Part shown: positions 1 through 17,605 of the stretch, one piece after another
Position numbering within the stretch: position 1 is the first letter of the stretch
Layout: each line of letters opens with the position of its first letter
NCBI GenBank assembly: GCA_964648855.1
Contig: CAZYLT010000028.1
Location: 1-20,046, forward strand
Length of the DNA: 20,046 bases
Direction of reading: 5' to 3'
Source: an uncultured archaeon
GTDB taxonomy: Archaea; Asgardarchaeota; Thorarchaeia; Thorarchaeales; Thorarchaeaceae
Notes under the pieces: generated by a model
Told to the model about the DNA's origin: nothing
What the model saw: the letters and a program-made list of their open reading frames with translations, nothing else
Database searches by the model: none
Made by a program: the position numbers and the translations under genes

Positions 1-61
1 GTAACGGTAGCATAGGGGATTGTGGACGTCACTTTCTGCGGCAAAACTCCCCTGACGCGGG
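1..61 (+). pseudogene. Partial tRNA-His(GUG) copy with a 21-nt BHB intron; 5' end cut by the window edge, 3' end truncated after the 5' strand of the T-stem
   Basis: Positions 1-25 and 47-61 match the exons of the complete tRNA-His (10161 to 10101, minus strand) at 40/40 nt. Anticodon GTG is at 22-24 and the intron at 26-46. After GCGGG (57-61) the sequence reads GATACTC instead of TTCAACT, so there is no T-loop or acceptor 3' strand. Confidence 0.88.
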
Positions 62-298
62 GATACTCTCTTTGAGGTCATAATGATTAAGGATTTTTTC
101 CAACTCCGGATTGTAAATCTGGTTATTACCACTCTTTACTCTTAATGTCTAATGAGTATTAACTATCTTTAAATTCACAACAAGCATGCATTTGCATAAG
201 ACTACTCCGTCCATTCCAGTCTGTCTCCATTCAGTTTGAAACAAAAGACGCTGAGGAGGAACATGTAGTCGTAAAATATGAAAAAGGAGCAATAGCAA

Positions 299-496
299 AT
301 GCCACTTGAGAAAATCGATGAAGGATTGAATACATTGAAGGCTGTATTGAGCACTTTGGACAGGTTTAATGCTGATAATCTTGTTTCTTTAAAGGAAAAA
401 GATGAGAAGCTTTACGGAGATGTGATGCTACGAATTGAAACCGCAATAGAAGTAATAAACGGAATTATCAAAGATATGCATGATAATCGAAGATAA
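299..496 (+). CDS. Small hypothetical protein (65 aa, predicted helical)
   Basis: ATG start with AAGGAG just upstream; amphipathic helical composition; no recognisable motif. Confidence 0.6.
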   Translation: MPLEKIDEGLNTLKAVLSTLDRFNADNLVSLKEKDEKLYGDVMLRIETAIEVINGIIKDMHDNRR

Positions 497-702
497 TCAA
501 AATAGATTGTGCTTTGGAAAGGGCAAGGTCAATTGCAAATATGATTCCACTGACAAAGTGAATCCAATCAGCGATAACATCGAATCTCGTTCTAAACGAA
601 GAGGTGTCTTTCCTTGGAGTTGATTTTAGCACAATTTATGAAGAACTTTTTAAGAGCAGTTTCGGACTGTGCTATAGCATTCTGGGTAGGAGCTGTTTGG
701 AA

Positions 703-1656
703 ATGGATAACTTCGATTGGCTGAAAGACAAAGTTGAGAATCTCGCGGGAGTGAAAGAAGAAATAGCGGACCTGTGTGAGAAGGGTGAGTACATAACATA
801 CGACAAGGGGCTTTGGGCATTCTGGAAGCTGCTCATTCATTCCTATTATGTGGACATATTCACTCTAATCACGAAGAAGCGTATGAACAATGTAGTATAC
901 ATCGATCTATTGGCAGGACCCGGCTTTAATTATTTGGCGGATATCAATCTCACTGTGGCAGGCTCACCACTGATTGCAAAGTTGCAGCCCAGAGTAACAA
1001 AAGACGGAAAATCAAAAGCCTTTGATGAAATGATTCTTGTGGACTCTGACAGACGTAATTGCGCAAGCCTCGAAAGAGTATTGAATGAGAGAGTAATTTG
1101 TGCGGACTGCAATTCGTCTGAAGTAATGTCAGCCATTGAAGATGCAATGAAGCCAAGAAAGTCCATATATCTAGCATTTATAGATCCCGAGGGGGTGGAA
1201 GAAGTCCATTGGAATACAATGATGAATCTTTTCAAAATGCCAGGCGACCTAATAATTAATTATCCATGGTCTGGAGCTGCGCGACTAGTAGGAAGCTATC
1301 GCCATACTTCAGGTAGTACCAAAGAAAACATCGGACTGCTAATTGACAAATTCTTTGGAGATGAAACGTGGAGGAATGTTCCAGAGGACTCAGTAGCTGA
1401 TTGGCTCAATGATTTCTATTTAAAGCGTGTAAGAAGATATCGAAGTGAGATTGTCGAATTTCCTATAATGATGATTGGTGGGGCACAGTATCGTATACTA
1501 ATTGCGACACGCCAAACAGAATCAGGTTCGCCTTGGCTCAAGCCGGTTTACCGACTTAGGAATCACCATCTTAACAGGTTGACCGACGAGGACCTAAAAC
1601 GTCTCGTTGAAATTTACAAAGGAGATCAAACAACCCTTGATGAATTCTGCAGCTGA
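703..1656 (+). CDS. tcmP: Three-Cys-motif partner protein TcmP-like SAM-dependent methyltransferase
   Basis: Family-type motifs W..wKL...Y, YIDLLAGPG (SAM-binding), GSPL, ADCN, AFIDPEG, DLIINYP, FFG...W and Y.ILIAT. The ORF is open from 604, but ATG 703 follows a TAGGAG RBS. Adjacent to a three-Cys radical-SAM gene. Confidence 0.85.
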   Translation: MDNFDWLKDKVENLAGVKEEIADLCEKGEYITYDKGLWAFWKLLIHSYYVDIFTLITKKRMNNVVYIDLLAGPGFNYLADINLTVAGSPLIAKLQPRVTKDGKSKAFDEMILVDSDRRNCASLERVLNERVICADCNSSEVMSAIEDAMKPRKSIYLAFIDPEGVEEVHWNTMMNLFKMPGDLIINYPWSGAARLVGSYRHTSGSTKENIGLLIDKFFGDETWRNVPEDSVADWLNDFYLKRVRRYRSEIVEFPIMMIGGAQYRILIATRQTESGSPWLKPVYRLRNHHLNRLTDEDLKRLVEIYKGDQTTLDEFCS

Positions 1657-1718
1657 ATACAAAGAGTCTATAATTTCATACCGTGTGGTTCATAATAGTA
1701 CGTGAAAACAAATAGGAG

Positions 1719-2789
1719 ATGCGTCTGATGGACCTAGTGGAAAAAGGGAATGCCCTAAAGGCAAATGAATTAATCCGACAGAAAGAAGGCCAATCAATAC
1801 GAGTTATAGATTTGATTCAAGACGAGAATATTGTTATTGATGTAAATAGTCTTGTTAAGGCACTCAAAGAGCTAGAGCGACAAGGCGATATCTACATCGA
1901 GAGGCACCCAAGGTTAGAGAACGGAATTATCAGAAAGGATATCCGTTCCTCGGATATTGTTTATTTCAATTGTTTTCCATCTATAGATAGAAAGTCCCTG
2001 CTGTATCAGACGAAGGTGGAGTATGGCGATTATACTATAAATCACATTCTTGGATGCGCGCATGGATGCCAATACCCTTGTTATGCCATGAATATCTCCA
2101 AGAGATGGGGGCGCATATCTGATTATGAAGACTGGATGCATCCCCGAGTTGTAGGAAATGCCCTCGATTTATTGGAAAGAGAATTACCACGGTTGAATGG
2201 TGATATCCAATTTGTCCACATGTCATTTATGACCGATCCGTTCATGTTCGATGCACCAAACAATCGGAATTTTCCTTGGATTCAAAATCTCACACTCGAG
2301 TTGGTTGAGAGAATAAACCAGGAAGCGATTAAAGTTACAACTCTGACAAAGGGGCTTTCTCCTATTGAGCTGACAGCCGGTCGTTTCGACAAAGAAAATG
2401 AATATGGCATAACGCTTGTTTCATTGAGTGACGAATTTCATGCTCAATTTGAGCCATTCTCTGCTGAGCCATTGGCCCGCATCCAAGCACTTGAGAGATT
2501 GCATCAGAATGGATTGAAGACCTGGGTTAGCTTAGAACCATATCCTACTCCAAATATAATTGAGCAGGAACTCTCTGACATCCTTGCTGAAGTGGCATTT
2601 GTGGATAAAATTGTATTCGGAAAGTGGAATTACAATGCATTGATTAATGGACATCCAGATGCAGAGAAATTTTACGTGGAGGGGGCGGGGGAGATCATTC
2701 GATTTGCAAAAGAGAATGGTATCGACTATCATATCAAAGAGGGAACGCCCCGAAATTCAGCGGAAACGGAGAAATTGTTCCTATCATAG
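1719..2789 (+). CDS. Radical SAM protein (SplB-like/three-Cys-motif type) with N-terminal winged-helix-like extension
   Basis: GCAHGCQYPCYA Cys triad (Cys codons 2055, 2067, 2079; Cx3Cx3C spacing), SFMTDPF, LTKG, GITLVS, FEP...P..RI.AL, and TWVSLEP, all typical of SplB-like radical SAM enzymes. Confidence 0.85.
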   Translation: MRLMDLVEKGNALKANELIRQKEGQSIRVIDLIQDENIVIDVNSLVKALKELERQGDIYIERHPRLENGIIRKDIRSSDIVYFNCFPSIDRKSLLYQTKVEYGDYTINHILGCAHGCQYPCYAMNISKRWGRISDYEDWMHPRVVGNALDLLERELPRLNGDIQFVHMSFMTDPFMFDAPNNRNFPWIQNLTLELVERINQEAIKVTTLTKGLSPIELTAGRFDKENEYGITLVSLSDEFHAQFEPFSAEPLARIQALERLHQNGLKTWVSLEPYPTPNIIEQELSDILAEVAFVDKIVFGKWNYNALINGHPDAEKFYVEGAGEIIRFAKENGIDYHIKEGTPRNSAETEKLFLS

Positions 2790-2805
2790 CGGGCAAATGC
2801 TTATG

Positions 2806-5800
2806 TTAGCAGTATTCCTCCTCATATAATGAAAGGCCTCTGTCCTCAATTATTTTACCAACCTCGTCACTAATACACTCTAAATCCCAATTAGAGATGG
2901 TGAGGTGACCTATTCGATGGTCAATCTCTTCCCAGATGGAATTGGACACAACATCCCCCTCTCGTATATGCCGGCTGAGATCTTCAACAATGACAAAGTC
3001 ATCGTAGTTGTCCTGTTCTGCTTGTAGGGCTAATCTCACAATAATCCTAACTAGCCCTCGTCTTCCGACCTTGATGTGAGAGCATAGAAACACTAGGTTT
3101 TCATCAGTACCCCACCCATCTTTAGATTCATCAAGTTCAGGGTCGTACTCGTACTCATCGTCAAGCTCTTTCGTCAGGATTCTGCCTTGAATGGCTGCGT
3201 TAAATCGCTTATACTCTGAAACATCTGGAATCTTGGAAAGGTCAATATCGCCTAATCCTATATCTACTGGATGGCATAACCCCCTCCTACTATCAACAAG
3301 TTGCTTGCAGTCTGCGAGAAGAACGACATCGTATATATGCATAAATTTCCGCTCGAACTGCTTGAAAGGAGAGTTTTCCTCCAACTCTCTGAACTCGATT
3401 CGGAATCGCTTGAATCTGCGTCGTTCAGCAAGAAACTTTTCTTCCTGAATCATCAAGGTGCATCGTGGCCCCTCCTGCATATCTAAGAGTTCTTCGCACG
3501 TTTCAGGAAGTGAGAGAATTTCAGGATAGAAACTGGACCTCTGAACGAACGGTTTCAGAAACGACATATTGATTATAGGTATCTTGTCTTCGCTCTTGAT
3601 TTCAAGGTCGGGGTACACGACATCAGTGACATGGCTCCACACCATCCTCACCCCGTCTGCACTTGATGGGAATTTCCCAGTCCTGAAGGGAGCTCTAATG
3701 TATTCGATAACCTCTTGGGTATATTCTGTTTCAATCCCAATGTATGACTGATTTCCAGCTCTATGCATTACCCGATACACTTCTCTCTCATCGTCAATGG
3801 TGATGTAGCAGTCAACATGTTCAGATTCCACTTCAAACGAAGAGATCTCTCTCAGTAAGTCAACCACTCGTTCATCAGGGTTGTCGGGTAGCTGAACATT
3901 TTCTGGTCTTCTAATAGATAACATAACCTCCTGGGGTGGCCAGGTGATTCTGATCCAGCGAATGGGCACGAACATTCCTTTGGAAGGAAATCCATACTGT
4001 AGCATTCCAAGAATTTGCCATTCATTATCCTCCGCATCCTGCATCCACAGGATTGATTCACCAAGTACTCTCGTTAAGATAATAGGCGTACTCTCATGGT
4101 TCATTAGTGCCTTTTCAGCCTTGGATGCTAGTTCACTCGGGTCAATAACGCAGGGATGAAATCCTGTCCTCAAATGCATGCTTTCTTGATCGGTCAGAAG
4201 GGCAGCTTTCAGAGAGAAGTCTTCTTCAGAGGGCAGAAAAACCCACAGGTCTAGCGGGTAGCTCGGTTCTATACTCAAAATTGCACCAACTTGGTAGTCC
4301 ATTCTTTGGACTAACACATTGCTCGGTTGTGACTGAAGTTGTCTTGCTCGCCACTCCAAATTTGAGTACAGTGCCCTGAAATTGTACACTGATTGTACTC
4401 TGTTGCGTTCTCTTCTTACCGCCTCAAATCCCATTTGTATCGGTATCCAATAAGAAATAGAGTTCCATAGTTTTGCAGTTCTTGGATCAAATGGATGGTC
4501 GAAGTTGTTCCGAGCAGCCACATAAACGGCGAGAAATAGGTTCATTCCGTATAATTGCAGCAGTTGGGGATTCTTGGCTATCGCATCCCTTAGGTTCTTT
4601 TTATTTATGGGATTGAGATTCTGTAGCACCTCTTCTTTTTGCTCATCAATCAGTCGCCATGTCTTTGCTCGGTCATCTCTTTTGAGAATCTCAGCCCTGA
4701 TTTTTTGAAGTGCTTGAAGAAGTACATCAGATGTGCTATTTCCCGATAAAACGCGATTGCATGTCTTCATTATCTTGTGCAAATCAACGTAGAGGTCGTC
4801 GCCCGTGCTCACGGATTTTCGAAGAAATCCCGCAGCCTTCTCTAGTCTTCCAAGCTCCTTTCTTCTGATTATGGTCGAGTCTATAGTGCTGGGAGCCGTG
4901 ACGCCTGTTGGAGGTGGACGAATCGTGGTTCCCGTCACATTTTCTGGACGCCTCTGGTATGACGGCATCGTATCATAAGCCCAAGGACGACTGACAAGGT
5001 CTAGTGAATAGATGTCTTTCTGAGAATGCAATGTTATTGGCATCAACTCATTTTGGACAAGTGTCAATCGCGTTGTAAGTGGCACAGGAGAACCCGGATT
5101 TGATAACGAAGAGATTTCATTCAGGTATTCTGGCAGTTTAGATGAGTGGTCTTTGTTGCTTTCCTGTTGGAAACCCCTGTCAAGACTTGGAAGGAGAGTC
5201 ATAGCGCTTTCTTCCAACTTTTCGCAATCAGAAATCGTGGGAGGAATCATGTTGGAGAGTGTGACCAACCGCCCGTGCATTGTCTGGCTTTTTGTTTGAA
5301 GTTCTGCTAACTCGGAAGTACTCAAAGCGCCTCCCCAATCCTTCAGACCTCTGAACTTACGACCCCATGCCTTCAGACATGGTACATGGATTGCGGTCCG
5401 CCATGGCGGAATAGGGGAGGCGATTTCTTGCACAATCACTCTTATGTCAGAATGTCTAGGGGAACGCCATCCAAATATTCGTGGACTTGTAGGAAGATTC
5501 CAGATTATCTCATCTACTTGCTCCAGCCTAGGCGAGTTGTGATGAAGAGCTTTCGCGCAGCTCCTTTGATAATACGGATTCATTCTATTGTGGTTCCTGG
5601 GTGAATCAATCCAGATTATCTCAATATTCTGATTTGGAAGAACAGAGAGAATCAGTTTCTCAAGAGCTATAGGAACATCCTCCGGTTTCTTTGGCATCAT
5701 CCTTCGAAATTCAGTCCAACCGTCAATGACAAAGATTATGCCGCTTTCATCATGGAAAGAAGCTTGAATTTTTCCAATGAAGTTCCTTAATCCCTCATCA

Positions 5801-7878
5801 ACTCTGCCCGAAACAATTTTGTTGATTTCTGTTTCAAGTGGGAAGAACTCGATACTATCAAGAGTGGCTATCGAAGCGTTTCTTTTTTTCTGGGATAATT
5901 CACCTCTATGATACATTGCTTCAATGCCCATTCTCTTTTTCCGTAGATGCTTTGTGGAGAAATCTCCGAGCAAATCAAGCCAAACAACTCTATGGATGTG
6001 CTGTGAGTGTTCAAGACACTCTTGCAGATGATGGAGAAGGTGCCAGTTCTTCGAAATCCACGCCGCTGCTTTACCAGATGAAGTTGGAGAATCCACCGGC
6101 ACATATACCGTTAATAGCCGTTCATCAGAGATTCGCTTCTCGAAAGGATTATATTCAGGTAGTTGATCAGGTGGAATACATTCGGCGATTAGGTGATGTG
6201 GGCCTTCATTAGAATGCACTAACATAGCAATTCGTGGAGAATTGCTCGTCGCATTTTTCGGTTTCTTCAATCCCACTCTCTTCCAATGGTAGACATCATG
6301 GTTCAAGGTGGCGAGTTCGTCACACAACTGAGAAACCAGTATTTGTGCTGCATCAAAGACCTTCTTGTGATCTTCTTGCGAATCCAGAATCAGTACTCCT
6401 TTCCAGAGCTTTTCAGGAGCTTTAGGGTCGCTTGGCACGAGGTTTTTGTATTCCTGAACTATGTTCTGTTCATACAAGACCAACTGGTCCATCGTGTTGC
6501 CCCGAGGTAGGGAGTTCTCAAGCATATTCCATTCGTGAGCTGTGAACGGCCGCTTGCATGCAAAGAATTCGGGAAGATAGTCGTTACCGCTTCTAGATTT
6601 AGTCGAAAAAAGAGCGAAGTCAATCGAGGTCTTGGTCTTCAGTTCGATCACCATTATGGGCGTAAATACGATTCCCTTTGCGACCTCCCGTCGTACGAAG
6701 ATGACAATGTCTGAAGATCCCCCAGCAATTGGCACCTCGCTGGCAACTAGAATCGGGGACTTGGTGTCCAGAAATTTGTCGCCAGCAAAAACAATCTCTT
6801 TGAAACTGGTAGGTCTGTTGAATCCAGAGAGTAGTATTCTGTGCCACGTATTCCCCTCTCCCACGATGATTCTATTGATTTGTTCTCGTAGCTTCTCCGC
6901 ATCCCTCTCCACAACTATACCGTTGTCAATCATATCTAGGAGTTGACCCAACTTCTTTCGTTCTTCTTTGTCGGTTGTGATGTTTCGCAAATCAATTGCC
7001 TTGCTTCGGATATCGCCGATACTAAGCGAAATTGACTCAGCATCGAGCAGTTCGGTGGTACGCATTCCGCGACCAATTCGCCGACCATAGATGGTTCGAA
7101 TATCCAGAACAATCCCTCGCAGTATCTTATGTCCTTCAGTGTAATAGTCACTACGTCCAGTCTCACCGCCTGTATAGACGTAGTCCAAAAAGGGACGCAG
7201 TCGGTGGATGAGAAGGCGAATGTACCGATGCGATTCGTTTCTGGGAACACTATGGATGAAGCACTGGCGGACTAGTTCAATGATATGAGCACGAATCATG
7301 TCCACGAATTCCAGAGATGGAAGAGAAGAGTGCCTCAAGATGATTCTCGGGCATTTTGAGTTTCCTGGATACCCTGCTCTCCAGTATGATTTGATTGAAT
7401 CGTCATCCGGCACCGCATTAGCCATGCTTTCAGTGAGAACTTTCCTAGAGTCATCAGCGTATACTCGTATTTGATAGAGCAATGGGTCCGGAAATGGGTA
7501 GCGAGTGACAGCAAGGTCACGCAATCGAGCACCGGCAAAATTCAGTAGACCATTAATCGGTCCAACGGTCCCCTCTTCCCAGTTCCGAACTCTCTTGAAT
7601 TCCGTATTCCCGTATTTTCTTGTTGACCACCACAGGATCTGAAGATACATAGACCGCAGATTGTTCTCAGCAGATTGTATTGGCCATATGTCATGTTGAG
7701 TGAAGGACTGTATGTCATTGGCTCTTGTCTGTGCCTTTTTCCATAGACGCTGTGTAGCCTCTACAGCACTCCGTACCTCTTTCTGTCTAGAGGCTCTTGC
7801 TCTAGCCAGGCGAACAAGGACAGCCAATCCTGTATGGATTGAATCTGCTAGCACCTGCGCAGCATGAAAACCTCCCAT
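2806..7878 (-). CDS. Giant hypothetical protein (1690 aa): PD-(D/E)xK nuclease motif, degenerate P-loop NTPase-like region, long acidic C-terminal module
   Basis: Uninterrupted 5-kb ORF with an AGGTGG RBS and TTATAA upstream. SEVPIAGGSSD...VIELKTK...DQLVLY (6472-6738) matches the RecB-like nuclease pattern. SPTSSGK (6070-6090) and IIFVIDG (5719-5739) resemble Walker A and Walker B. Confidence 0.85.
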   Translation of the reverse strand: MGGFHAAQVLADSIHTGLAVLVRLARARASRQKEVRSAVEATQRLWKKAQTRANDIQSFTQHDIWPIQSAENNLRSMYLQILWWSTRKYGNTEFKRVRNWEEGTVGPINGLLNFAGARLRDLAVTRYPFPDPLLYQIRVYADDSRKVLTESMANAVPDDDSIKSYWRAGYPGNSKCPRIILRHSSLPSLEFVDMIRAHIIELVRQCFIHSVPRNESHRYIRLLIHRLRPFLDYVYTGGETGRSDYYTEGHKILRGIVLDIRTIYGRRIGRGMRTTELLDAESISLSIGDIRSKAIDLRNITTDKEERKKLGQLLDMIDNGIVVERDAEKLREQINRIIVGEGNTWHRILLSGFNRPTSFKEIVFAGDKFLDTKSPILVASEVPIAGGSSDIVIFVRREVAKGIVFTPIMVIELKTKTSIDFALFSTKSRSGNDYLPEFFACKRPFTAHEWNMLENSLPRGNTMDQLVLYEQNIVQEYKNLVPSDPKAPEKLWKGVLILDSQEDHKKVFDAAQILVSQLCDELATLNHDVYHWKRVGLKKPKNATSNSPRIAMLVHSNEGPHHLIAECIPPDQLPEYNPFEKRISDERLLTVYVPVDSPTSSGKAAAWISKNWHLLHHLQECLEHSQHIHRVVWLDLLGDFSTKHLRKKRMGIEAMYHRGELSQKKRNASIATLDSIEFFPLETEINKIVSGRVDEGLRNFIGKIQASFHDESGIIFVIDGWTEFRRMMPKKPEDVPIALEKLILSVLPNQNIEIIWIDSPRNHNRMNPYYQRSCAKALHHNSPRLEQVDEIIWNLPTSPRIFGWRSPRHSDIRVIVQEIASPIPPWRTAIHVPCLKAWGRKFRGLKDWGGALSTSELAELQTKSQTMHGRLVTLSNMIPPTISDCEKLEESAMTLLPSLDRGFQQESNKDHSSKLPEYLNEISSLSNPGSPVPLTTRLTLVQNELMPITLHSQKDIYSLDLVSRPWAYDTMPSYQRRPENVTGTTIRPPPTGVTAPSTIDSTIIRRKELGRLEKAAGFLRKSVSTGDDLYVDLHKIMKTCNRVLSGNSTSDVLLQALQKIRAEILKRDDRAKTWRLIDEQKEEVLQNLNPINKKNLRDAIAKNPQLLQLYGMNLFLAVYVAARNNFDHPFDPRTAKLWNSISYWIPIQMGFEAVRRERNRVQSVYNFRALYSNLEWRARQLQSQPSNVLVQRMDYQVGAILSIEPSYPLDLWVFLPSEEDFSLKAALLTDQESMHLRTGFHPCVIDPSELASKAEKALMNHESTPIILTRVLGESILWMQDAEDNEWQILGMLQYGFPSKGMFVPIRWIRITWPPQEVMLSIRRPENVQLPDNPDERVVDLLREISSFEVESEHVDCYITIDDEREVYRVMHRAGNQSYIGIETEYTQEVIEYIRAPFRTGKFPSSADGVRMVWSHVTDVVYPDLEIKSEDKIPIINMSFLKPFVQRSSFYPEILSLPETCEELLDMQEGPRCTLMIQEEKFLAERRRFKRFRIEFRELEENSPFKQFERKFMHIYDVVLLADCKQLVDSRRGLCHPVDIGLGDIDLSKIPDVSEYKRFNAAIQGRILTKELDDEYEYDPELDESKDGWGTDENLVFLCSHIKVGRRGLVRIIVRLALQAEQDNYDDFVIVEDLSRHIREGDVVSNSIWEEIDHRIGHLTISNWDLECISDEVGKIIEDRGLSLYEEEYC

Positions 7879-7901
7879 TCCACCTAAATTGTCAAATCCA
7901 C

Positions 7902-7910
7902 TTATAAGTT
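7902..7910 (-). promoter_or_regulatory. Putative archaeal BRE/TATA box for the giant gene
   Basis: Minus strand reads AACTTATAA about 25-30 nt upstream of the ATG at 7878. Confidence 0.5.
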
Positions 7911-8003
7911 GTACCGGAGTGAATCAAATATATAATAAGCATTATGGGGCTTTTTTTCTTCATTTAGAAGTCTAATAGTGCTTTATTTCAATAATTGCTT
8001 AAT

Positions 8004-8112
8004 AACCTTAAATACTGCAGTACATACAATTGTACGAGTTCAAAACCCCCTGTCGGTATGGATATGGGAGTGAACTCAGCTGACCGAGACAGGTCAGAAC
8101 CTTAAATACTGC
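8004..8112 (+). repeat. 15-bp direct repeat AACCTTAAATACTGC (8004-8018 and 8098-8112), each copy containing a BRE/TATA-like box
   Basis: Exact match read directly from the sequence; 79 bp between the copies. Confidence 0.85.
8036..8097 (+). ncRNA. Candidate structured small RNA or 5' leader upstream of tnpB
   Basis: Stem GAGTTCA (8036-8042)/TGAACTC (8071-8077) encloses an inner stem, followed by hairpin CTGACC-GAGACA-GGTCAG (8080-8097). It begins 28 nt after the first TTAAATA box, where an archaeal start site is expected. Confidence 0.4.
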
Positions 8113-8118
8113 TAGGCG

Positions 8119-9792
8119 TTGAAGATGAACAAAACCGACACCGTGAACATTGCTGTTAAGATCCCCATCAACACTGAAGTAATGACTGATAGGTCGTTGC
8201 GGAGGTTGAGGCAAATCACGGGAAGGGACAGCAGGATCATCCGTGCGAACCTTGGAATCATCGAGGACAATGAGAAGGACCTTCTTCAAGGGGGGCCTAG
8301 GAAACGCATTGAGGAGAATAGGCTGCGAGAAATGACACTAACTGCCTTGAGAGTGAAGAGTGGCTACAAGCAGAGGTTGACTGTTCCCCATGACTTGAAG
8401 GAACGTTTCCCACGTACTTCAACCAATGAGCTTGACCAGTGTCGCAAGACTGCAGTCATGTTGTACGATGCATATCTGACATTGCGACAGAGGAATCCAA
8501 GGATGAGGAGACCGTGCAAGACAAATCCTGACGGCAAAATTCCCCGTTGGGTTTTTCTTAAGTGCTTCAGGTTGAAACATTCACCCACTACGATATCTCG
8601 GTGGTGGCTTGATTTACGAGACGCTCTCGATTCTGTTCCAGAAGGCAGACCCACACACGACCGATTGAGACTTCCCCTGAAAGTCACTCCATTCCATGAG
8701 GATCAACTCAATAGGGGAGAAGTGAAGGCCGTCCAGATCTTCTGTGATAGGCATGGCAAGTGGTGGACTGCCTTCGCCGTGACACTATTGGTAGCAGTGC
8801 ACGATTTGAAGGATGACTTACCCTTTGCCATACTTGGTATCGATCTCGGGGTGAAGAAAGCAGTCTGTAGTGTTCTCCTCACAGAGCACAAAGTGTCCGA
8901 AACAAGATACTTCATCCAAAAGGAAAAGCGGGACTCAATGATGCAGTATGATGCCAGAGTTGCCGACCTACAGCAGGCAATAGAGAAGAAGAGAATCAGT
9001 GGAGATGAGGGCAGGCTTCTTATGAAGCTCAAGAGTTTCAGAACAAAACGGGAAGATGTATCCAAGACCCATGATCGTATTCTGGTCAGCAACCTAATCT
9101 CATACATAGGGGAACTCGACCAGAAGTGCAATCTCTTTGTTGCCATCGGGAAGCTCAAGGGGATTCGTTATGCTGCAAGAAGAGGCAACTACCGAGGTAA
9201 TCGCTACCGTGGCATGGTACATAGATGGTCTTACTTCCGGATCACAGAAGCCTTGAAGCACGGACTCGCACAACTTGGCTGGCCGGTTGAAGGAGGCAAG
9301 GCACGAATCCGAGCGGTGCCTGAACAATGGACCTCAATCAAATGCTGGAAGTGTGGACAGAAGGGATATCGCCCGAAGCAGTCCCTCTTTGTCTGCCACA
9401 CGTGTGGCTTTAGAACCAACGCCGACCGAAATGGTGCGCTTAACATAGCGCGCCGACTCATTACGCTCATTCCTTTACTACAGAATGAGACCGGACTAGG
9501 GCGGTGGGTGTCCCCCGAGCGGGCCCCAGCCCCGAAGGCTGTAAGGAAGACTCGTTCTTCTAAGCAGAAGTCCTCACTCAACAAGATGGAAGTTTCGTCA
9601 ACCTCCGTTGAGTCCGCGGCCGTTCATCATGTCCAATTGGATGTTCTCAGATTCAGTGATGGCTCTGAGATGGATGATTATGACCCTGCCGTGGCAAAAG
9701 CTGTGGAAACACTTCCTGCGGCCAGAAGTGACGAGCTGGCGAAATCGCAGAAGACAGAAGCCAGGTCTGATGGAGGGACGGTGTCCCGATGA
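8119..9792 (+). CDS. tnpB: TnpB-family RNA-guided endonuclease with rearranged RuvC-II and C-terminal extension (557 aa from TTG 8119; ATG 8125 or GTG 8143 also possible)
   Basis: RuvC-I ILGIDLG (D242); RuvC-II strand LFVAIGKL with G344 at the usual Glu position; WSY motif; VPEQWTS (E402); Zn finger CWKC...CHTC; RuvC-III NADRNGALNI (D436). Confidence 0.93.
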   Translation: MKMNKTDTVNIAVKIPINTEVMTDRSLRRLRQITGRDSRIIRANLGIIEDNEKDLLQGGPRKRIEENRLREMTLTALRVKSGYKQRLTVPHDLKERFPRTSTNELDQCRKTAVMLYDAYLTLRQRNPRMRRPCKTNPDGKIPRWVFLKCFRLKHSPTTISRWWLDLRDALDSVPEGRPTHDRLRLPLKVTPFHEDQLNRGEVKAVQIFCDRHGKWWTAFAVTLLVAVHDLKDDLPFAILGIDLGVKKAVCSVLLTEHKVSETRYFIQKEKRDSMMQYDARVADLQQAIEKKRISGDEGRLLMKLKSFRTKREDVSKTHDRILVSNLISYIGELDQKCNLFVAIGKLKGIRYAARRGNYRGNRYRGMVHRWSYFRITEALKHGLAQLGWPVEGGKARIRAVPEQWTSIKCWKCGQKGYRPKQSLFVCHTCGFRTNADRNGALNIARRLITLIPLLQNETGLGRWVSPERAPAPKAVRKTRSSKQKSSLNKMEVSSTSVESAAVHHVQLDVLRFSDGSEMDDYDPAVAKAVETLPAARSDELAKSQKTEARSDGGTVSR

Positions 9793-10070
9793 TTCCAGAC
9801 AAAGCCCATGCTGCCTCATGCCCACCCAGTATGAGATCGGTGGCGACACCAGGTATGGGAAGGGTGGAACACAGAAGTTTCTTGCAGATGACGTTCACTC
9901 ACATTCTAGGAGACAGGTCAGGGCGCGGGAATCGAACCAAATGTATTGTGAAGAAATGGAGAATTCAATATACTGCAGCAAGGCGAGAGGACGTAGGGAA
10001 CACAATGCGATTGCGGAACCCACATGATTTTCTTATTCATGAGGAGGATATCTTTCTTAATTCTATAAAG
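9766..10070 (+). ncRNA. Putative omegaRNA (reRNA) scaffold plus guide; boundaries approximate
   Basis: Dense stems around the tnpB stop: CCCATGCT/GGTATGGG (9805-9859), CTCATGC/GTATGAG (9815-9835) and GGTG-GCGA-CACC with a GNRA loop (9839-9850). Possible pseudoknot CCACCC (9822-9827)/GGGTGG (9862-9867). Terminal hairpin at 10020-10044. TnpB omegaRNAs are known to lie at this position. Confidence 0.65.
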
Positions 10071-10077
10071 GAACAGA

Positions 10078-10173
10078 TGGGGCCCGGGGCGGGAGTTGAA
10101 CCCGCGTCAGGGGAGGTCTGCCGCCAAGAATGGCGTCCACAATCCCCTATGCTACCGTTACACCACCCAGGCC
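10078..10173 (-). tRNA. tRNA-His(GUG) with encoded G-1, C73 and CCA, and a 21-nt intron at 37/38 (10116-10136)
   Basis: Full cloverleaf: acceptor GCCTGGG/CCCGGGC, anticodon stem GGGGA/TCCCC, anticodon 10138-10140, T-arm GCGGG-TTCAACT-CCCGC. BHB motif: TTGT pairs with GCAG, two 3-nt bulges, intron hairpin CGCCA-TTCT-TGGCG. Confidence 0.97.
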
Positions 10174-10276
10174 ATGGTTTGGTGGGTAGCATTTCATCGC
10201 ACAACCGATTGAACTTATTAGCTTATCCATATTCCTACTCTATGAAGCCAACCAATCACAACAGCGAGGTTATTAT

Positions 10277-11926
10277 TTGAAGACTTCCATCCAGAAAAAA
10301 GAACTCGGCGCGTACTACACAGATCCCCGAGTGGCGGAGTTCTTGGTTCGCTGGGCGGTGAGAACCCCCAATGACAGAATACTCGACCCTTCTTTTGGAG
10401 AGGGTGTCTTTCTGGAAGCGGCTCTAAATGTAATGGGAGAATCTAAGGAGGTTGGGGAGCAGATTTATGGTGTCGAAATAGATGACTCGGAATATGATAG
10501 GGCGATAGAGAAATTCTCTGAATGGATTCCAGAAGAAAATCTCATTCACTCCGATTTCTTTGAAGTGATAGGGGGCGAGAATCATGGAACACTCGCTGAA
10601 ACTCAAGTGCCCGCTGTAGATGCGGTAGTTGGAAATCCTCCTTACATAAGGTATCACAGATGGAAAGGGAAGACTCGGAAAAGAGCGCAGGAAAAGGCCG
10701 AAACTCTAGGCGTTGAAATCAACGGGTTGAGCTCATCGTGGGCTCCCTTTGTGGTGTATTCCACTTCATTCCTTAAAAAGGGTGGACGCCTGGCCATGGT
10801 ATTACCCGCCGAAATCATGCATGCCTTCTACGCGAAACCGGTATTGGAGTACTTACATCAGACATTCAAGTTAGTGCGTCTGATTGCATTTCGCGAGAAG
10901 CTTTTCAGCCAGTTGTCAGAAGACACCTTGCTGATTCTCTGTGATGAAAAGGGTTGTGGGCCTTCTGAGATGTTCTTGACAGAGCTGCAAAACGTCTCAA
11001 AGATAGACGAGGAAATACCGACTGGGACCTCAGTTGAGTCGAAGTCCGTATTGGCTGGCGAGTCAAAGCTGATTGAGTATCTTCTGCCTGACAAGATCCG
11101 CCAGCTCTATTCGAGAATAAAGCAGGATGCACGTTCAGTCAAGCTCGGCGACATTGCTGATGTCGGTATTGGATACGTCACAGGGAATAATGATTTCTTC
11201 CACCTCTCACGATCTGAAGTAGAAGCCTTAGGGATCCCTGAAGAAGCGCTTTCAAGATGCCTTAGAAATAGTAGGCACATCCAAGGCCTTGTTGTAACAG
11301 ATGATGATTGGGAAAAGCTGAGAAACAAGGGTGAGGCCGTATTCCTGCTCAATCTGGCAGGTCTCGAGCCTCTGGCTGATGCAATTGAGGAGTATCTAAG
11401 AACTGGAGAAGAACGTGGTGTCCATCAAGGGTACAAGTGTAGAAATCGCAAGCCTTGGTATGTAGTTCCTCATGTCTACAAGTCTGATGGACTTCTCACC
11501 TATATGAGTGGAAAACGGTCAAGGCTCGTAGTCAATAAGGCTGGCATCTATGTTCCGAATACTTTGCATACTGTAAGACTTAGAGAACCGCATAATGACA
11601 TTATGCTTCAGCTTTCTCTTAGTTGGCTCAGCAGTTTCACAAGACTTAGTGTTGAAATAGAGGGCCGGAGCTTAGGGGGAGGTATGTTAAAACTTGAACC
11701 AAGTGAAGCTCAGAGGGTTCTGGTGACACTGCCGGAGCTGGCACCAAAGCCATTGAATAACACTACAAACAAAATAGACCATCTTCTTCGTGACAATAAA
11801 TGGACTGAAGCCATGTTAGTCGCAGACCATGCGGTTCTTCGGCAAACCCTGGGATTGGATGATGAAGAAATACAATTGCTAAGGCAAGGGGCTAAGGAGC
11901 TTCGAGAGAAGCGATATTCTCGTTAA
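10277..11926 (+). CDS. N6-adenine DNA methyltransferase, gamma class (type II restriction-modification)
   Basis: GAYYTD, motif I LDPSFGEGVF preceding motif IV VGNPPY, LKKGGRLAMVLP, and a C-terminal TRD with KCRNRKPWY and EGRSLGGGMLKLEP. Confidence 0.92.
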   Translation: MKTSIQKKELGAYYTDPRVAEFLVRWAVRTPNDRILDPSFGEGVFLEAALNVMGESKEVGEQIYGVEIDDSEYDRAIEKFSEWIPEENLIHSDFFEVIGGENHGTLAETQVPAVDAVVGNPPYIRYHRWKGKTRKRAQEKAETLGVEINGLSSSWAPFVVYSTSFLKKGGRLAMVLPAEIMHAFYAKPVLEYLHQTFKLVRLIAFREKLFSQLSEDTLLILCDEKGCGPSEMFLTELQNVSKIDEEIPTGTSVESKSVLAGESKLIEYLLPDKIRQLYSRIKQDARSVKLGDIADVGIGYVTGNNDFFHLSRSEVEALGIPEEALSRCLRNSRHIQGLVVTDDDWEKLRNKGEAVFLLNLAGLEPLADAIEEYLRTGEERGVHQGYKCRNRKPWYVVPHVYKSDGLLTYMSGKRSRLVVNKAGIYVPNTLHTVRLREPHNDIMLQLSLSWLSSFTRLSVEIEGRSLGGGMLKLEPSEAQRVLVTLPELAPKPLNNTTNKIDHLLRDNKWTEAMLVADHAVLRQTLGLDDEEIQLLRQGAKELREKRYSR

Positions 11927-11948
11927 TCTCTGGTTCCGAGTGTTGTGA

Positions 11949-12827
11949 TTATTCATACTTTTCGTCATATTGCGCCGCAATTGTTTCTAGTGCGTTTTCG
12001 TACCGGACAGCTTCATATTTTTTATCTTTGAAAACCAAGGGGTCTTCCAATCTCGGGCGGTCAATATTGTCAAGATGACAAAATTGAATCGCGAATCCAT
12101 CGTAACCACCACCGCTTAACTGCTTAATAGGCACGTCTTGGATAATAATGTCTAGTGTCTTCTCGGGTTCGTCGGGCTTATTCCTAGATATCATTGTTTC
12201 GGGTAATGCTGGGTCTTCAACGAATTCTCTTATCTTCTCGTTGCCCGTACCAATCATTCCCTCCAATTCTTTGAGATTGAATTTCGATTCAGAACAGAGA
12301 TGCGATAATACGTCCCGGGCTCTGATAAATGTTTCATAATTCAAGAACTTATCTGCAGTTCCGATAATAAAAGTCCCTACAAGAAGCACATGTCTGTGTT
12401 GGCCATCTCTCACTGCTTCGGCTAGATCAGCGAGAATTCTAGTTCTATTGTATACATTTCTATGAGCAGTTATCAGGCTCTTGTTTTCCATGATCAAACG
12501 AATGTCCTTCGGTTCGGACTCTCGGATTCGTTGAAATCCCTGATTCTTTGGATCGATACTAGTCTGTTGTGATGAATCTTCTCTTGTTCCCAGAACCAAG
12601 TCTAGGACATGTTGCCTTCCGCCGAGGCCAAGCCGATGGTTTACCTTGTAACAGATAGTTCCAGCATCAACATCAGACTTGAAGATTGAACTCACATGAT
12701 ACAAATCCCTGAGGAATTCCTTGCTAAGGTAATCAGAATGAAATCCGGTTCTTGGATGGTGTATTCTCTCTCTTTCTAGATAGCTGACCAGTCGCTCAAA
12801 TGCGGTCCTATTTAGTCCGATATTCAA
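11949..12827 (-). CDS. Putative type II restriction endonuclease (PD-(D/E)xK fold)
   Basis: HVLDLVLG...IRLIMENKS catalytic-type motif; convergent with the methyltransferase, 22 bp between the stop codons. Confidence 0.7.
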   Translation of the reverse strand: MNIGLNRTAFERLVSYLERERIHHPRTGFHSDYLSKEFLRDLYHVSSIFKSDVDAGTICYKVNHRLGLGGRQHVLDLVLGTREDSSQQTSIDPKNQGFQRIRESEPKDIRLIMENKSLITAHRNVYNRTRILADLAEAVRDGQHRHVLLVGTFIIGTADKFLNYETFIRARDVLSHLCSESKFNLKELEGMIGTGNEKIREFVEDPALPETMISRNKPDEPEKTLDIIIQDVPIKQLSGGGYDGFAIQFCHLDNIDRPRLEDPLVFKDKKYEAVRYENALETIAAQYDEKYE

Positions 12828-13040
12828 TACTAACTAACCATTGCAATCAGTAGCAATACACGGTAATAATTCTTTATCAGTCTACAAAACTACAATCGAG
12901 AGCTAAAAAATCATTGCACAATAGAGCAATTGTATTTTCCATGCAAGTTAGGTGCGGGGAGATATGCCAAATAAAATAGCCTGCATTCCAAATTCCAAGA
13001 GGCGACCTGATAACCGTTATTCTTATCTTAACAACAGTCA

Positions 13041-14261
13041 TTGGAAACACTAAGCAAAGGTAGGAAGGCGCCAGTATTGGTTGACTTGGAAAAGGGAGAA
13101 GGTATATGGAATTTCATAGAAATTGATGACAGTAAAATAGAAACAGACATCAGCTCCAACCCTCTAAAGTATATCGATAAACTTACCGAAAAATTGGATG
13201 GGGCTGATTTGGAAACAGTCGGCAAAGGAGTCATATCAGGCAACAAACTAAGAATTGCTTCAGGCGTTGAGGAGATATATAACCAAAGTCCGGACAGATT
13301 CATGACATTGGTTTGCATTATGGAGTTTGTAAATCGAAAACCCAAGGCGGTCTATGAAATAGCGGAGGAGGCATTCGCCAAAAAGGGGCAACCGAATATA
13401 AGCGACAATGGGCCAATCGCCCATGCATATAAATTATATGAGAAAGACCCGAAACTGCTTTTCGATGTCTATCTGAGAAATCAAGTGATCAGAAAAGGAT
13501 TTGATAGCTACAAACTGATAAGCAAGAAAAAGTCGTTCCCGCAACACCCTCTGCAGAAAATAGATGAGAATAGAATCAATACCTTTCTCAAAGATGTAGA
13601 CTCGCAGTTCAATGATGGTCTAGAAAGCAAATGCTGGCATGTTTCACATTATGGAAGTACAACTGAAGTGTACCTTAGAAGACAAGATGAACCGATTCTA
13701 CTGAAGAAACTTCTAAGAAATATTCGCCAAACCATGGCAAGTTCGACAATTCTACGCTTTGACAAACACGGCCGGAATGTAGACCTTTGGTCAGAGAAGC
13801 ATTCGGTCGCGGAAAAGCTACTTAATCATCTTTCTAAGAAGATTTTTGAGAAAGATGCAAAATATGAGCCAGAAGTATACAGAAACAGTAAAGCCGATGT
13901 TAAAAATTGGCTTGGAGCAATAATGCATGGTCAGGATAGTGACATGAAACTACTCAAAATAAAGAGGAGAAATGCTCCAATCAAAGGCAGTCCAAAAATA
14001 ACCATAGAATCATCAAGGTCGATTCATGTTTCATTGAACTCGTTGAAACAAGCTGGTATTGATCTTAGCAAAGATTGCGCTACTGAAACAGAGGAGATTA
14101 GCATTGAGTACAAATCAACCAAGTATTTATTTGGATTAAGAATCAGCAATGGGTCCATTGTTGTTTATAGCAAGAGACAAAGAGGGACAAAGAAAGCAAT
14201 GGAATCGATTATCACATATTTGAAAAAAGAATATAGCATCAAGATATCACTGAGCAACTGA
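13041..14261 (+). CDS. Hypothetical protein (406 aa, Lys-rich), first gene of a two-gene operon
   Basis: Long ORF in AT-rich DNA, 5 bp upstream of the next gene; no catalytic motif recognised. Confidence 0.8.
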   Translation: METLSKGRKAPVLVDLEKGEGIWNFIEIDDSKIETDISSNPLKYIDKLTEKLDGADLETVGKGVISGNKLRIASGVEEIYNQSPDRFMTLVCIMEFVNRKPKAVYEIAEEAFAKKGQPNISDNGPIAHAYKLYEKDPKLLFDVYLRNQVIRKGFDSYKLISKKKSFPQHPLQKIDENRINTFLKDVDSQFNDGLESKCWHVSHYGSTTEVYLRRQDEPILLKKLLRNIRQTMASSTILRFDKHGRNVDLWSEKHSVAEKLLNHLSKKIFEKDAKYEPEVYRNSKADVKNWLGAIMHGQDSDMKLLKIKRRNAPIKGSPKITIESSRSIHVSLNSLKQAGIDLSKDCATETEEISIEYKSTKYLFGLRISNGSIVVYSKRQRGTKKAMESIITYLKKEYSIKISLSN

Positions 14262-14266
14262 TCATA

Positions 14267-15394
14267 TTGCTACCAAATGGCTATATTGTTTATCCTGATA
14301 ATGATTATGCGCTAGAGAGATGCAAAGTTCTTTGCAGGTTGGGATTAGCTGATGCCTTGGAACAAGAAGTTGTCAGTTGTGTAAATCATAGGGATTGGGA
14401 TTATGATACCCTTTCTACTGAAGAAAAGCGATGTTCTTCATGGATATTCGTCAGTTCATTTGAAGAGGGTTCGGCGGTATGTGAAGAATGTGGACGAAAA
14501 ATAAATCGGAAAGAGAAGAAGAACAAATACAAGGCTTGGGAGGTAAGCCTAAATCTTGATAAAATCTCAAAATACATTGTGGAGAGGCTGAAACCGGAGG
14601 TAGACCACATAGAGGAGAGAGAATACTCATGGGAAATTCTACTTAATCGAAGGCATTCATTTCTTGTACTTATTGGATATATGCCAATACAGTTCAATCA
14701 GGATTATTTGTTTGGAAACGTAGGGAATACTATTGGATTGGCAATTTCTGACTATGAATATAACCAGTTCATTCAATCCTTTCCGTTACAACCAGCCATA
14801 ACCCTGCAGAATCTGATTCAAGATCCTAAATCAGTCATTCGGCTGATTAACGCATCTTTCACTGAACAGCCCAGAAAACTAGAGGTGGATTCATGCAAAG
14901 ATCTTCTGCTTTCATTTGCTAGCTCGTTCAACTCATCAGGCTCTGATTTCGAAAATCTCTGCCTTGAACTCGAAAGGAATATTCGCGACAATAAACAAGG
15001 AATGGAGCAAATTCTCAACCAGCTCAAATTGAAGCAAGCGATATCATACAGAGTCCTGCATCTAGGTGGCTCTGGAATGCCAGATTTGCTGCGGATACCG
15101 CTCTTCCCCTATTTCAGAGATTACTTTACTCATAGCGGTGTTATAGAGTCCAAGCAGTATCTGCAGAGCAAACTTAGGCCGACACATCTCGGACAAGCAA
15201 TACGACATGCAAGGCATTATGGCCAGAAGAGAATTCTCATCTACGCTCTGACAGAGGATGTTGCTCCAAGTGTGTGGAGTGATGTCCTTAGCGTCAGAGA
15301 AGCTGATGGGGGATTTCTCAATATCGTGATGGATACTACATTTATTGCATACTTGATAGTGGCTTTTGATTTGGTTGAAACTATGTTGACCTAA
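14267..15394 (+). CDS. Zn-ribbon plus C-terminal Mrr-like restriction endonuclease domain protein (375 aa)
   Basis: Cys cluster SCVNH...RCS...VCEECG; C-terminal DFENLC...LGGSGMPDLL...VIESKQY...HLGQ fits the Mrr/type IV pattern FE...G..PD...ExK. Confidence 0.78.
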   Translation: MLPNGYIVYPDNDYALERCKVLCRLGLADALEQEVVSCVNHRDWDYDTLSTEEKRCSSWIFVSSFEEGSAVCEECGRKINRKEKKNKYKAWEVSLNLDKISKYIVERLKPEVDHIEEREYSWEILLNRRHSFLVLIGYMPIQFNQDYLFGNVGNTIGLAISDYEYNQFIQSFPLQPAITLQNLIQDPKSVIRLINASFTEQPRKLEVDSCKDLLLSFASSFNSSGSDFENLCLELERNIRDNKQGMEQILNQLKLKQAISYRVLHLGGSGMPDLLRIPLFPYFRDYFTHSGVIESKQYLQSKLRPTHLGQAIRHARHYGQKRILIYALTEDVAPSVWSDVLSVREADGGFLNIVMDTTFIAYLIVAFDLVETMLT

Positions 15395-15401
15395 TGGCGA
15401 T

Positions 15402-15716
15402 TTAGAACTCTAGGACTCGCTCCTCATTATTTGTGTTTCCCGGGTTCACTTCATCCATCAATTCTACTATTTTTTCAGTCTTTTCTGAGCAAATCAGTTC
15501 CTTGAATTCCTGCAAGTCATTCATGGATCGGATGTAGAGATCGTTTTTCTTCTTACGTTTTCCAGCTTCGTCTACTGGATTGATAACCACAGCCAATGAG
15601 GGCGGGCCGCCTTCGTTTCGGGGAGGCATTTTACAGATTTTCAATCCCGCGATGTTAGTTTTAACTTTCTCCCATGCTTTTGCATCTCTCAATATTTCTT
15701 CAAGCTCACCCTTCAT
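15402..15716 (-). CDS. Small archaeal-type hypothetical protein (104 aa)
   Basis: AGGTG RBS upstream; protein-like charged composition (WEKVKT.I.G..I.K.P...LAV.INPVD..G). The resemblance to conserved archaeal hypotheticals is from memory only. Confidence 0.75.
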   Translation of the reverse strand: MKGELEEILRDAKAWEKVKTNIAGLKICKMPPRNEGGPPSLAVVINPVDEAGKRKKKNDLYIRSMNDLQEFKELICSEKTEKIVELMDEVNPGNTNNEERVLEF

Positions 15717-16090
15717 GAAAGCAACACCTTACAAATAGAACAAAGAATTGGAGGAATTTAGTTGTTTTCCTGCAGAAGCTGTCTTCTCGTATGCTCTTGA
15801 TACAATTATAATTAGCATAAGGCACATCGCCCGCCCCGGGCCCTTTACTTCAATATATATTTCATTAACATTTCACTTCGGGCCATAAAGAGGACTTGCA
15901 CTCCGAACTTCACTCATCCAATACTTTCAGAATTTATTTCTAACGGTTCAATGTGATATCTGCTGGTCGAGCCAAATGTAGTATCTTTATCCAAGCCAGA
16001 GTGGCTTATATACGAGGAATGAGTGAAAGTCACCCCCATAAGAAACGACCATCCCTTAATTAGAGAAAAAGGAATGTGAGGGCGAAGTAA

Positions 16091-17605
16091 TTGGCAACGC
16101 AGAAGAAGATGGATTATCAACTTGGGGCCATATTGAGTATCGAGTCGAATTACCCACTGGATATGTGGATTGTTCTTCCTTCTCAAAGGGGGACATCACT
16201 AAAGGCGGCTCTACTCTCAGAACAAGAGAGCGTCTATTTGAGAGCTGGGTTTCATCGCTGCGTCATTGACCCCAATAAGCTGGCAGATATGGCAAGAGAG
16301 GCAATAAGACATCACCAGAGAGTGCCCCTTGCTTTATCAGAAGTACAGCGGGAAACAATCCTTTGGATGCAGGATGAGGATGATGCAGAGTGGCAAGTGA
16401 TGGGGTTGCTGCAGTACGGCCGTCCTCCCCGGGGCATGGTTGCACCGATTCGCTGGATTAGACTCAGTCGGCACCATCCAGACTTCATAGTATCTGAATC
16501 ACGTCCTAAGCACGTTACAATCCCCCCGGACTTCGATGAACAGGTGGACGAGCTGCTCAATGAGATTGCTTCTTATGAGGTGGAAACTGAAGAAGTTGAC
16601 TGTTACATCACCATTAACAACAAGAGAGACGTGTATCAAGTCATCCACAGAAGTGGAGATGCATCATGCAGAGGCATAGAGACCTCCTACACACAGGAGG
16701 TCATCGAGTATCTCAGATCTCCGTTCGGGACTGGGACATTTCCCTCAAATGAGGATGGGACTACCTTAGTGTGGGATCATCTAAAAGATGTGGAGTATCC
16801 CGACGTTGAGATTGGAACCAAAGATAATCCCCGGACGGTCAATATGTCCTTTCTGAAGCCATTTGTTCATAGGTCCACCTTCTATCCGGATGTCTTTTTA
16901 TTACCCGAAACTTGCAGGGGCCTGCTGGATATGAGAGAGGGGGAGGAATGCACCTTAATGATCCGAGAAGACAAATCTCTTGTCGAACATCGCGTATTCG
17001 ATAGATTCCGGGTAGAGTTCAAGGGGCTGGAAGGCGATTCTTCTCTCAAACGGTTGGAGCAGGTGACTATGCACATATTCGATGTCGCTCTTCTAGCCGA
17101 GTGCAAGCAGCTTGTCGATACCAGGGCAGGAGGTTATCATCCGGTGGAGATAGAATTGGGAGAGATTGATGTCTCCCGACTTCCGCATCTCTCAGAGTAT
17201 GAACGGCTGAACTCAATCATTGAAGAAACCATCCTTATGGCTGAGCTTGACGATGACTGTGAGTATGAGAGGGGACCCGTTTCTGATGAGGATGCGTGGG
17301 GCGTGGATGAGGAGTTGGTTTTCCTAAGCTCTCATATTAAGGTCGGAAGAAGAGGTCTCGTCACAATCATTGCTAGATTGGCACTAGAATCAGATGAGGA
17401 CAATTATGATGACATTGTCATCGTTGAGAATCTGAGCCAGCATGTACGAGAGGGCGATGTTGTGTCCAATTCGATCTGGGAAGAGATAGACCATCGACTA
17501 GGACATCTTGACATCTCTAGTGTGGAGATGGACCGCGTTTATGAAGAAGTCGAGGAGATAATAGAAAAGAGAGGTCTCTCGCTGTCAGATGAGGAGTTTT
17601 TCTAG
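16091..17605 (+). CDS. Stand-alone paralog of the C-terminal 498 aa of the 1690-aa protein (ATG 16109 possible); may be a 5'-truncated gene
   Basis: 16109-17605 (+) and 4302-2806 (-) are both 1497 nt from MDYQ to the stop codon. 41 of the first 60 aa are identical, with shared blocks to the end (e.g. REGDVVSNSIWEEIDHR). Confidence 0.88.
   Translation: MATQKKMDYQLGAILSIESNYPLDMWIVLPSQRGTSLKAALLSEQESVYLRAGFHRCVIDPNKLADMAREAIRHHQRVPLALSEVQRETILWMQDEDDAEWQVMGLLQYGRPPRGMVAPIRWIRLSRHHPDFIVSESRPKHVTIPPDFDEQVDELLNEIASYEVETEEVDCYITINNKRDVYQVIHRSGDASCRGIETSYTQEVIEYLRSPFGTGTFPSNEDGTTLVWDHLKDVEYPDVEIGTKDNPRTVNMSFLKPFVHRSTFYPDVFLLPETCRGLLDMREGEECTLMIREDKSLVEHRVFDRFRVEFKGLEGDSSLKRLEQVTMHIFDVALLAECKQLVDTRAGGYHPVEIELGEIDVSRLPHLSEYERLNSIIEETILMAELDDDCEYERGPVSDEDAWGVDEELVFLSSHIKVGRRGLVTIIARLALESDEDNYDDIVIVENLSQHVREGDVVSNSIWEEIDHRLGHLDISSVEMDRVYEEVEEIIEKRGLSLSDEEFF

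Follow-up and report, generated by a model that had tools for sequence, protein, structure and literature searches.

A putative stand-alone paralogue of the C-terminal module of an aCas1 protein at the edge of a tRNA-linked variable region in Thorarchaeota

The window, that is, the whole stretch of DNA that was analysed, was the complete contig C28 (20,046 bp) of a genome bin that was 94.6% complete. A giant protein of 1690 amino acids, P0001, was encoded by the ORF at 2806-7878 on the minus strand. Its N-terminal 1190 residues (4309-7878, minus strand) were predicted to contain a Cas1-like helical catalytic domain (residues 1-250), a PD-(D/E)xK motif, a RecA-like domain (residues 585-880), and a helical domain (residues 1000-1185), and a linker then led to the C-terminal module (residues 1191-1690; 2806-4308, minus strand). 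The fold search was performed with an AF2 model of residues 1-1200 (pLDDT 85, pTM 0.87), and sequence libraries (Pfam, NCBIfam, PADLOC, and PDB by sequence) gave no usable match for either the giant or the stand-alone protein P0002 described below. Residues E381, D390, and E412-x-K414 of the giant formed the PD-(D/E)xK nuclease signature, of which E381, D390, and K414 were invariant across 41 aligned giants in an E...D...ExK arrangement. A TnpB/Cas12f-like gene was located head-to-head with the giant at 8119-9792 on the plus strand (Pfam Cas12f1-like TNB, 2e-10; PADLOC Cas12 models, to 5.5e-20). The same divergent pairing was present at all 15 giant loci, which comprised this window and 14 loci taken from ten related genomes and from three further contigs of this genome. 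Both a Cas1-like catalytic domain within a large protein and an adjacent TnpB gene were thus found, as in aCas1-TnpB loci, and on the basis of the models the giant is an Asgard “aCas1” with predicted Cas1-like, PD-(D/E)xK, and RecA-like domains ahead of the C module. The label “giant nuclease” used in an earlier note on this DNA was incomplete for a predicted aCas1 fusion paired with TnpB. Such aCas1-associated TnpB loci of Asgard archaea, with the TnpB groups Cas1H-Asgard-1 and Cas1H-Asgard-2, were described computationally by Altae-Tran et al. 2023 (PMC10691335), who cite Makarova et al. 2020 for them. As in the passages of that paper on these loci, the giant was Cas1-like, lay head-to-head with a TnpB-like gene, belonged to a multi-copy group, and was confined to Thorarchaeota. 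Matches to its family were found in 26 of 43 genomes of one archaeal (Thorarchaeota) family versus 0 of 158 genomes elsewhere in the phylum, and the family formed about 211 clusters at 50% identity among 1.8 billion representatives. The full-length P0001 shared only 34-40% identity with any other giant.

The stand-alone gene P0002 was located at 16091-17605 on the plus strand and its ORF encoded 504 amino acids from a TTG start. The AF2 model of the protein (pLDDT 84) contained four domains, D1 (residues ~6-130), D2 (146-267), D3 (268-388), and D4 (406-500), with an acidic linker (389-405) between D3 and D4. Two orthologues of exactly 504 amino acids were identified, namely P0003 from a JGI metagenome (89% identity) and P0004 from Candidatus Thorarchaeota TEKIR_14 (84% identity), which was the sole other species of the genus available for comparison (genome 90% complete). 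The earlier note had raised the possibility that relatives carry a full-length gene at this position; instead, contig L025 of TEKIR_14 carried a 504-codon orthologue at the same place with the same TTG start. The first methionine of the sequence MDYQ, six codons downstream of the TTG, had been taken as the common start of the two copies. This did not hold, since the MDYQ ATG is ATA in the TEKIR_14 orthologue and a stop codon directly precedes the TTG in both genomes; the true start is almost certainly TTG 16091. The internal methionine at the corresponding MDYQ of the giant was not conserved among giants either. Similarity between the window and L025 started at 15824, 267 nt 5′ of the TTG, and spanned the gene, 200 nt downstream, and a flavodoxin gene. 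The upstream region (15824-16090, plus strand) was 84.6% identical to that of TEKIR_14, whereas the third codon positions of the gene were only 69% identical. Its core at 15984-16023 was 97.5% identical and included a TATA-like TTATATA at 16006-16012. A GAGG-type candidate ribosome site was located at 16076-16082, 9 nt ahead of the TTG, and the stop directly before the TTG was an in-frame TAA. No signal of RNA structure was found in the 267 nt (z 0.07 and -0.21), nor did they match any Rfam family. We infer that this region is the gene's own candidate promoter and leader (5′ UTR). The flanks of P0002 were single-copy in the genome, and no additional locus of the gene was found in a scan of the metagenome.

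The region between the two copies was variable and was associated with a tRNA gene. This intron-containing gene (10081-10172, minus strand; Rfam tRNA, 49.6 bits), just downstream of the TnpB-like gene, was identified as tRNA-His by its TEKIR_14 counterpart; ARAGORN called tRNA-His(gtg) in L025 and missed the copy in the window. The ORF at 9789-10280 overlapped the tRNA and was probably not a gene. Two tRNA-derived partial copies flanked the variable segments, each precisely at a break in synteny. A partial inverted copy of 10101-10161 at the start of the contig (1-61, plus strand; inverted repeat I2, 89%) formed the left junction of a giant-bearing segment of 9.26 kb. The other copy (15825-15843, plus strand; inverted repeat I8) comprised 19 nt of the tRNA 3′ end in inverted orientation with respect to the tRNA gene; it marked the left border of the conserved locus of the free gene, and TEKIR_14 had it as well, where synteny breaks off. 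Besides the aCas1 giant, the 9.26-kb segment (56-9315) contained a TcmP-like gene, a radical-SAM gene, and the 5′ two-thirds of the TnpB-like gene. Both TEKIR_14 and a contig from a later (2021) sample of the same mats lacked this segment, while the free gene stayed in place. The deletion junction, ~55 joined to 9316 with 2-4 filler bases, was the same in both, and points either to a segment that is polymorphic for presence or absence or to a precise deletion that recurs and has one end within tnpB. Within the segment, the “three-Cys-motif partner” (TcmP-like) gene (TIGR04474, 6e-20) and a weak radical-SAM/DUF5131-like gene occupied 604-2789, ended 17 nt from the stop of the giant, and travelled with it. 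The cassette at 10418-15823 contained an Eco57I-like N6-adenine methyltransferase gene, with no obvious nuclease partner, and four ORFs without a family. In TEKIR_14 it was replaced (L025 2697-7499) by a gene for a 1202-aa β-helix surface protein, and of the methyltransferase gene only the initial ~140 nt were retained. This 1202-aa ORF, 5′ of the TEKIR_14 orthologue, had been considered as a split-off N-terminal part of a giant (1202 + 504, ~1700) and was rejected as unrelated. The acyltransferase gene next to the free gene was absent from TEKIR_14, and the ancestral state of the site could not be traced through it. The 7.7 kb upstream and the 10 kb downstream of the TEKIR_14 orthologue contained no giant, and the 90% complete genome contained no close orthologue of P0001; other, distant aCas1 fragments were present. 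The free gene lies on the stable border of a hypervariable region linked to a tRNA, and since the gene persists where the giant is absent, the giant and the free module are not an obligate pair.

BLASTP aligned residues 1191-1689 of P0001 with residues 5-503 of P0002 over 499 positions, of which 296 were identical (59%) and 79% positive, with zero gaps and E = 0.0. The earlier statement that both copies measure 1497 nt from MDYQ to the stop and align throughout was confirmed: 1015 of the 1497 nt were identical (67.8%), in register and without gaps. This equal length results from the absence of indels and not from a shared start codon. The identity given earlier for the first 60 nt (41/60) was corrected to 45/60. 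Identities of 75%, 79%, and 49% at codon positions 1, 2, and 3, respectively, are the pattern of conserved coding sequence. The reported abrupt end of the similarity was also found, with 28% identity, a random level, over the 300 nt 5′ of the junction. The dN/dS between the copies, which the earlier note had proposed to calculate, was 0.158 at a dS of 1.70 that was near saturation (Nei-Gojobori). The dS was 1.4-2.2 in every domain of the module, and the better conservation of D4 was due to a lower dN (0.18), not a lower dS. The junction, at residue ~1191 of the giant, fell within a stretch with pLDDT below 50 (residues 1188-1200) that varied in length among the giants: their alignment showed gaps at 1193-1195 and an insertion site of 27 columns. 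Because the junction is in this disordered, length-variable stretch and the first strand of P0002 begins at residue 10, the homology boundary is, according to the models, a domain boundary within a linker. The module of about 500 amino acids was accordingly upheld as a discrete unit, both by this boundary and by its occurrence in free form in several lineages.

The free gene was under strong constraint. Compared with the TEKIR_14 orthologue, its dN/dS was 0.118 at a dS of 0.67 (Nei-Gojobori), versus 0.13-0.30 for modules inside giants at comparable divergence, so that the constraint was at least as strong as that on the embedded modules. In the tree, the branch length since the split was ~0.24 for the stand-alone lineage versus 0.40 for the C module of the giant. 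No stop codon or indel was present in the three lineages over this dS of 0.67. The six family-invariant residues W101, W122, R209, W228, D233, and P272 were all present in the free forms. Relaxed selection, a broken frame, and restriction to a single genome, the marks of a pseudogene, were not found, and the same locus was present in relatives. With high confidence, the sequence comparisons point to a real protein-coding gene that purifying selection has long maintained at one fixed position in the chromosome, and, with the same confidence, to a putatively independently transcribed paralogue of the C-terminal ~500-residue module of the aCas1 giant.

In the phylogeny of the modules, the C module of P0001 was sister to the P0002/P0003/P0004 clade (SH-aLRT 100), with a long stem, and was nested among the modules of giants. 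This position indicates that the free gene derives from a P0001-like lineage. The sequences indicate, with high confidence, that a P0001-like giant gave rise to it, through either a partial duplication or a 5′ truncation, and that this preceded the split of the two species of the genus. The idea of a truncation remnant put forward in the earlier note may be right as to origin, but a recent break specific to this genome did not agree with the finding that a relative of the same genus carries the gene at the identical site with all 504 codons (dN/dS 0.12). A search of relatives for orphan C-terminal copies, also suggested earlier, recovered free modules from the same boundary in several lineages: P0007, P0020, P0025, P0039, P0045, P0048, P0066, and the loci L037-L042 started 5-28 residues ahead of it. 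At least six changes between the states “inside giant” and “free” were required on the tree of 70 rows, which suggests that free C modules have been released in this Thorarchaeota family repeatedly, at least six times. In one deep free clade (genera g6 and g11), the neighbors of the module gene included asparaginase and peptidase genes but no TnpB, and this synteny was conserved between two g6 genomes. At L037 and L039 (G075:C4 and G055:C12), the module gene was flanked by an asparaginase gene and by a shared, divergently oriented, unannotated gene of ~205 aa that had no Pfam match. Other short forms (L041, P0007, and the P0006-type) were very close to intact giants and may be truncation remnants.

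The free protein was strongly acidic (net charge -49, pI 4.6), as was the C module of P0001 (net charge -41), and the modules of most family members had a pI of 4.3-5.5. The N-terminal 1190 residues of the giant were basic (net charge +27, pI 9.4). P0002 matched only residues 1191-1689 of the giant, and the Cas1-like, PD-(D/E)xK, and RecA-like parts were absent. No convincing relative of the module fold was found by Foldseek against PDB and BFVD, in the ESM Atlas, or in PDB by single-protein and profile sequence searches. From its sequence, we infer that the module serves aCas1 in binding to proteins or surfaces, rather than to DNA, and may be autoregulatory. Since the free protein lacks the catalytic domains while the invariant residues and the negative charge are kept, it would most likely act in trans as the tethered module does in cis. 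The free module would occupy the docking or ligand site of the module on aCas1, or a site on TnpB or on the element DNA, and would thereby damp or tune the activity of the aCas1-TnpB element, as a decoy or regulator. Of the readings put forward in the earlier note, the nuclease-free decoy or regulator is the one favored, as a hypothesis. The best explanation of the locus as a whole, with a probability of about 0.4, is an old, selected paralogue that acts in trans on aCas1-TnpB elements. The decoy or regulator mechanism itself, which was proposed by analogy, is more tentative and could easily be wrong. The wider proposal that Thorarchaeota repeatedly release the acidic tail as a trans-inhibitor of these elements, an “anti-transposase” decoy, is somewhat unlikely. 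In TEKIR_14, where the gene has no cognate giant of the P0001 type, any target would be the distant aCas1 paralogues, with modules 30-36% identical, or something else. Since most giant loci have no free module nearby, the free module is not a standard part of the element.

Truncated inhibitors of transposases, such as Tn5 Inh and the KP repressor of the P element, are produced from the transposase gene itself by an alternative start or by an internal deletion, and catalytically dead transposase fragments inhibit Tn5 or P elements. P0002 likewise consists only of a non-catalytic part of a candidate transposase and could, by analogy, compete with or poison it. Unlike Tn5 Inh and KP, it is encoded by a separate, 41%-diverged paralogous gene that has its own candidate promoter region and is fixed in the genus. 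The free gene also differs from the aCas1-TnpB element in that it lies outside the element and survives without it. The class of aCas1-TnpB loci is already published, and the passages of PMC10691335 that deal with it describe the gene pair, but not the C-terminal module or its recurrent, selected free copies. The free gene is a naturally excised and selected form of the C-terminal third of aCas1 with a soluble size (504 aa); it defines the domain boundary of this third, suggests that the module can function as a separate polypeptide, and can serve directly as a construct in binding, inhibition, and structural studies. Should it prove to be a decoy or regulator, it would add a new case of a host or an element controlling an RNA-guided, Cas1-linked transposon. 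If it inhibits in trans, it would be the first known regulator of any mobile element of the Cas1 family; the C-terminal third of aCas1 would then be an autoregulatory module.

A cellular role unrelated to the elements, in which the free module is an exapted host gene and the giant is nearby only through a shared tRNA-linked insertion hotspot, is an unlikely reading with several points in its favor. The gene persists in TEKIR_14 without a cognate giant, its flanks are single-copy, and the deep clade lies in asparaginase/peptidase synteny away from TnpB. However, the protein family is confined to the archaeal family that carries the elements (26/43 versus 0/158 genomes), and the retention of all family-invariant residues suggests the same molecular partner as that of the giants. 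Domesticated transposase domains resemble the present case in that one module was repeatedly released and was kept in conserved chromosomal synteny, although the free module here has no recognizable fold relative. If the module is not a decoy or regulator, the locus would be a clean case of repeated domestication of one protein module of a mobile element.

It is quite improbable that the free module is a trans-complementing subunit that provides giants with the C-terminal function when the module they carry is short, split, or broken. Such giants do exist. Domain D4 was missing from many of them, and two further copies in the same genome (C21 and C4b) matched only part of the module. The sole close partner (59%), P0001, already has a complete module, however, and TEKIR_14, in which no cognate N-terminal part was found, retains the gene. 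The second giant of the same genome (L031, G000:C4) was split by a single in-frame TAG at 3099-3101, exactly at the linker between the N-terminal body and the C module, and a TTG-ATG start followed six codons after the TAG. This giant has its own downstream module, which argues against a need for P0002, and its nearest relative, P0054, was unsplit. The TAG may be a nonsense mutation or a site of read-through, or the split may represent a genuine two-gene form; it may be a recent mutation because the closest relative is unsplit.

Persistence as an inert, decaying remnant of a truncated giant is hardly credible: mobile-element genes commonly leave 5′-truncated copies, and short forms very near intact giants occur in this family, but the intact 504 codons, the dN/dS of 0.118-0.158, the conserved start and upstream region, and an evolution slower than that of the giant's own module exclude decay.

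The earlier note had also proposed that the free copy is an alternative C-terminal cassette, whose recombination with the inverted copy would swap the tip of the giant and flip the intervening 12 kb. The inverted orientation and the colinear, indel-free homology of the copies would suit such an exchange, which was found to be very improbable all the same. The nucleotide identity was even at 68%; a conserved handle was absent, and identical runs in register between the giant and P0002 reached at most 17 nt. The giant was as near to the copy of the other species as to that of its own genome (68.5% to the TEKIR_14 orthologue and 67.8% to P0002), and where the two orthologues differed, it sided with P0002 at 79 sites and with TEKIR_14 at 89. 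The free gene has its own start and a conserved upstream region, and no site-specific recombinase was found among the main ORFs of the window. A second module was present only in this window and at none of the 14 other giant loci (flanks of 6-8 kb). The 9.26-kb giant segment was absent from a co-occurring strain and from TEKIR_14, in which the free gene remains. No boundary handle, exchange or conversion, or recurrent association with an orphan was established. Joints between the two copies were not found in contigs of four microbial-mat DNA runs, which proves little since contigs drop rare variants. Orphan C-terminal toxin cassettes are carried by Rhs/CDI loci, and shufflons have invertible tips. 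This locus resembles them only in that a very large gene has its C-terminal part, and nothing more, present a second time nearby; here no high-identity handle, array, immunity-gene partner, recombinase, or toxin-like domain was found, and the orphan is a conserved gene with a start of its own. The only stretch in which the giant was nearer to the free copy of its own genome was a marginal run of 10 informative sites at nt 1261-1380 of the module (2923-3042, minus strand, and 17369-17488, plus strand). This stretch holds identical runs of 17 and 14 nt and may be a tiny, old conversion tract or a result of chance.
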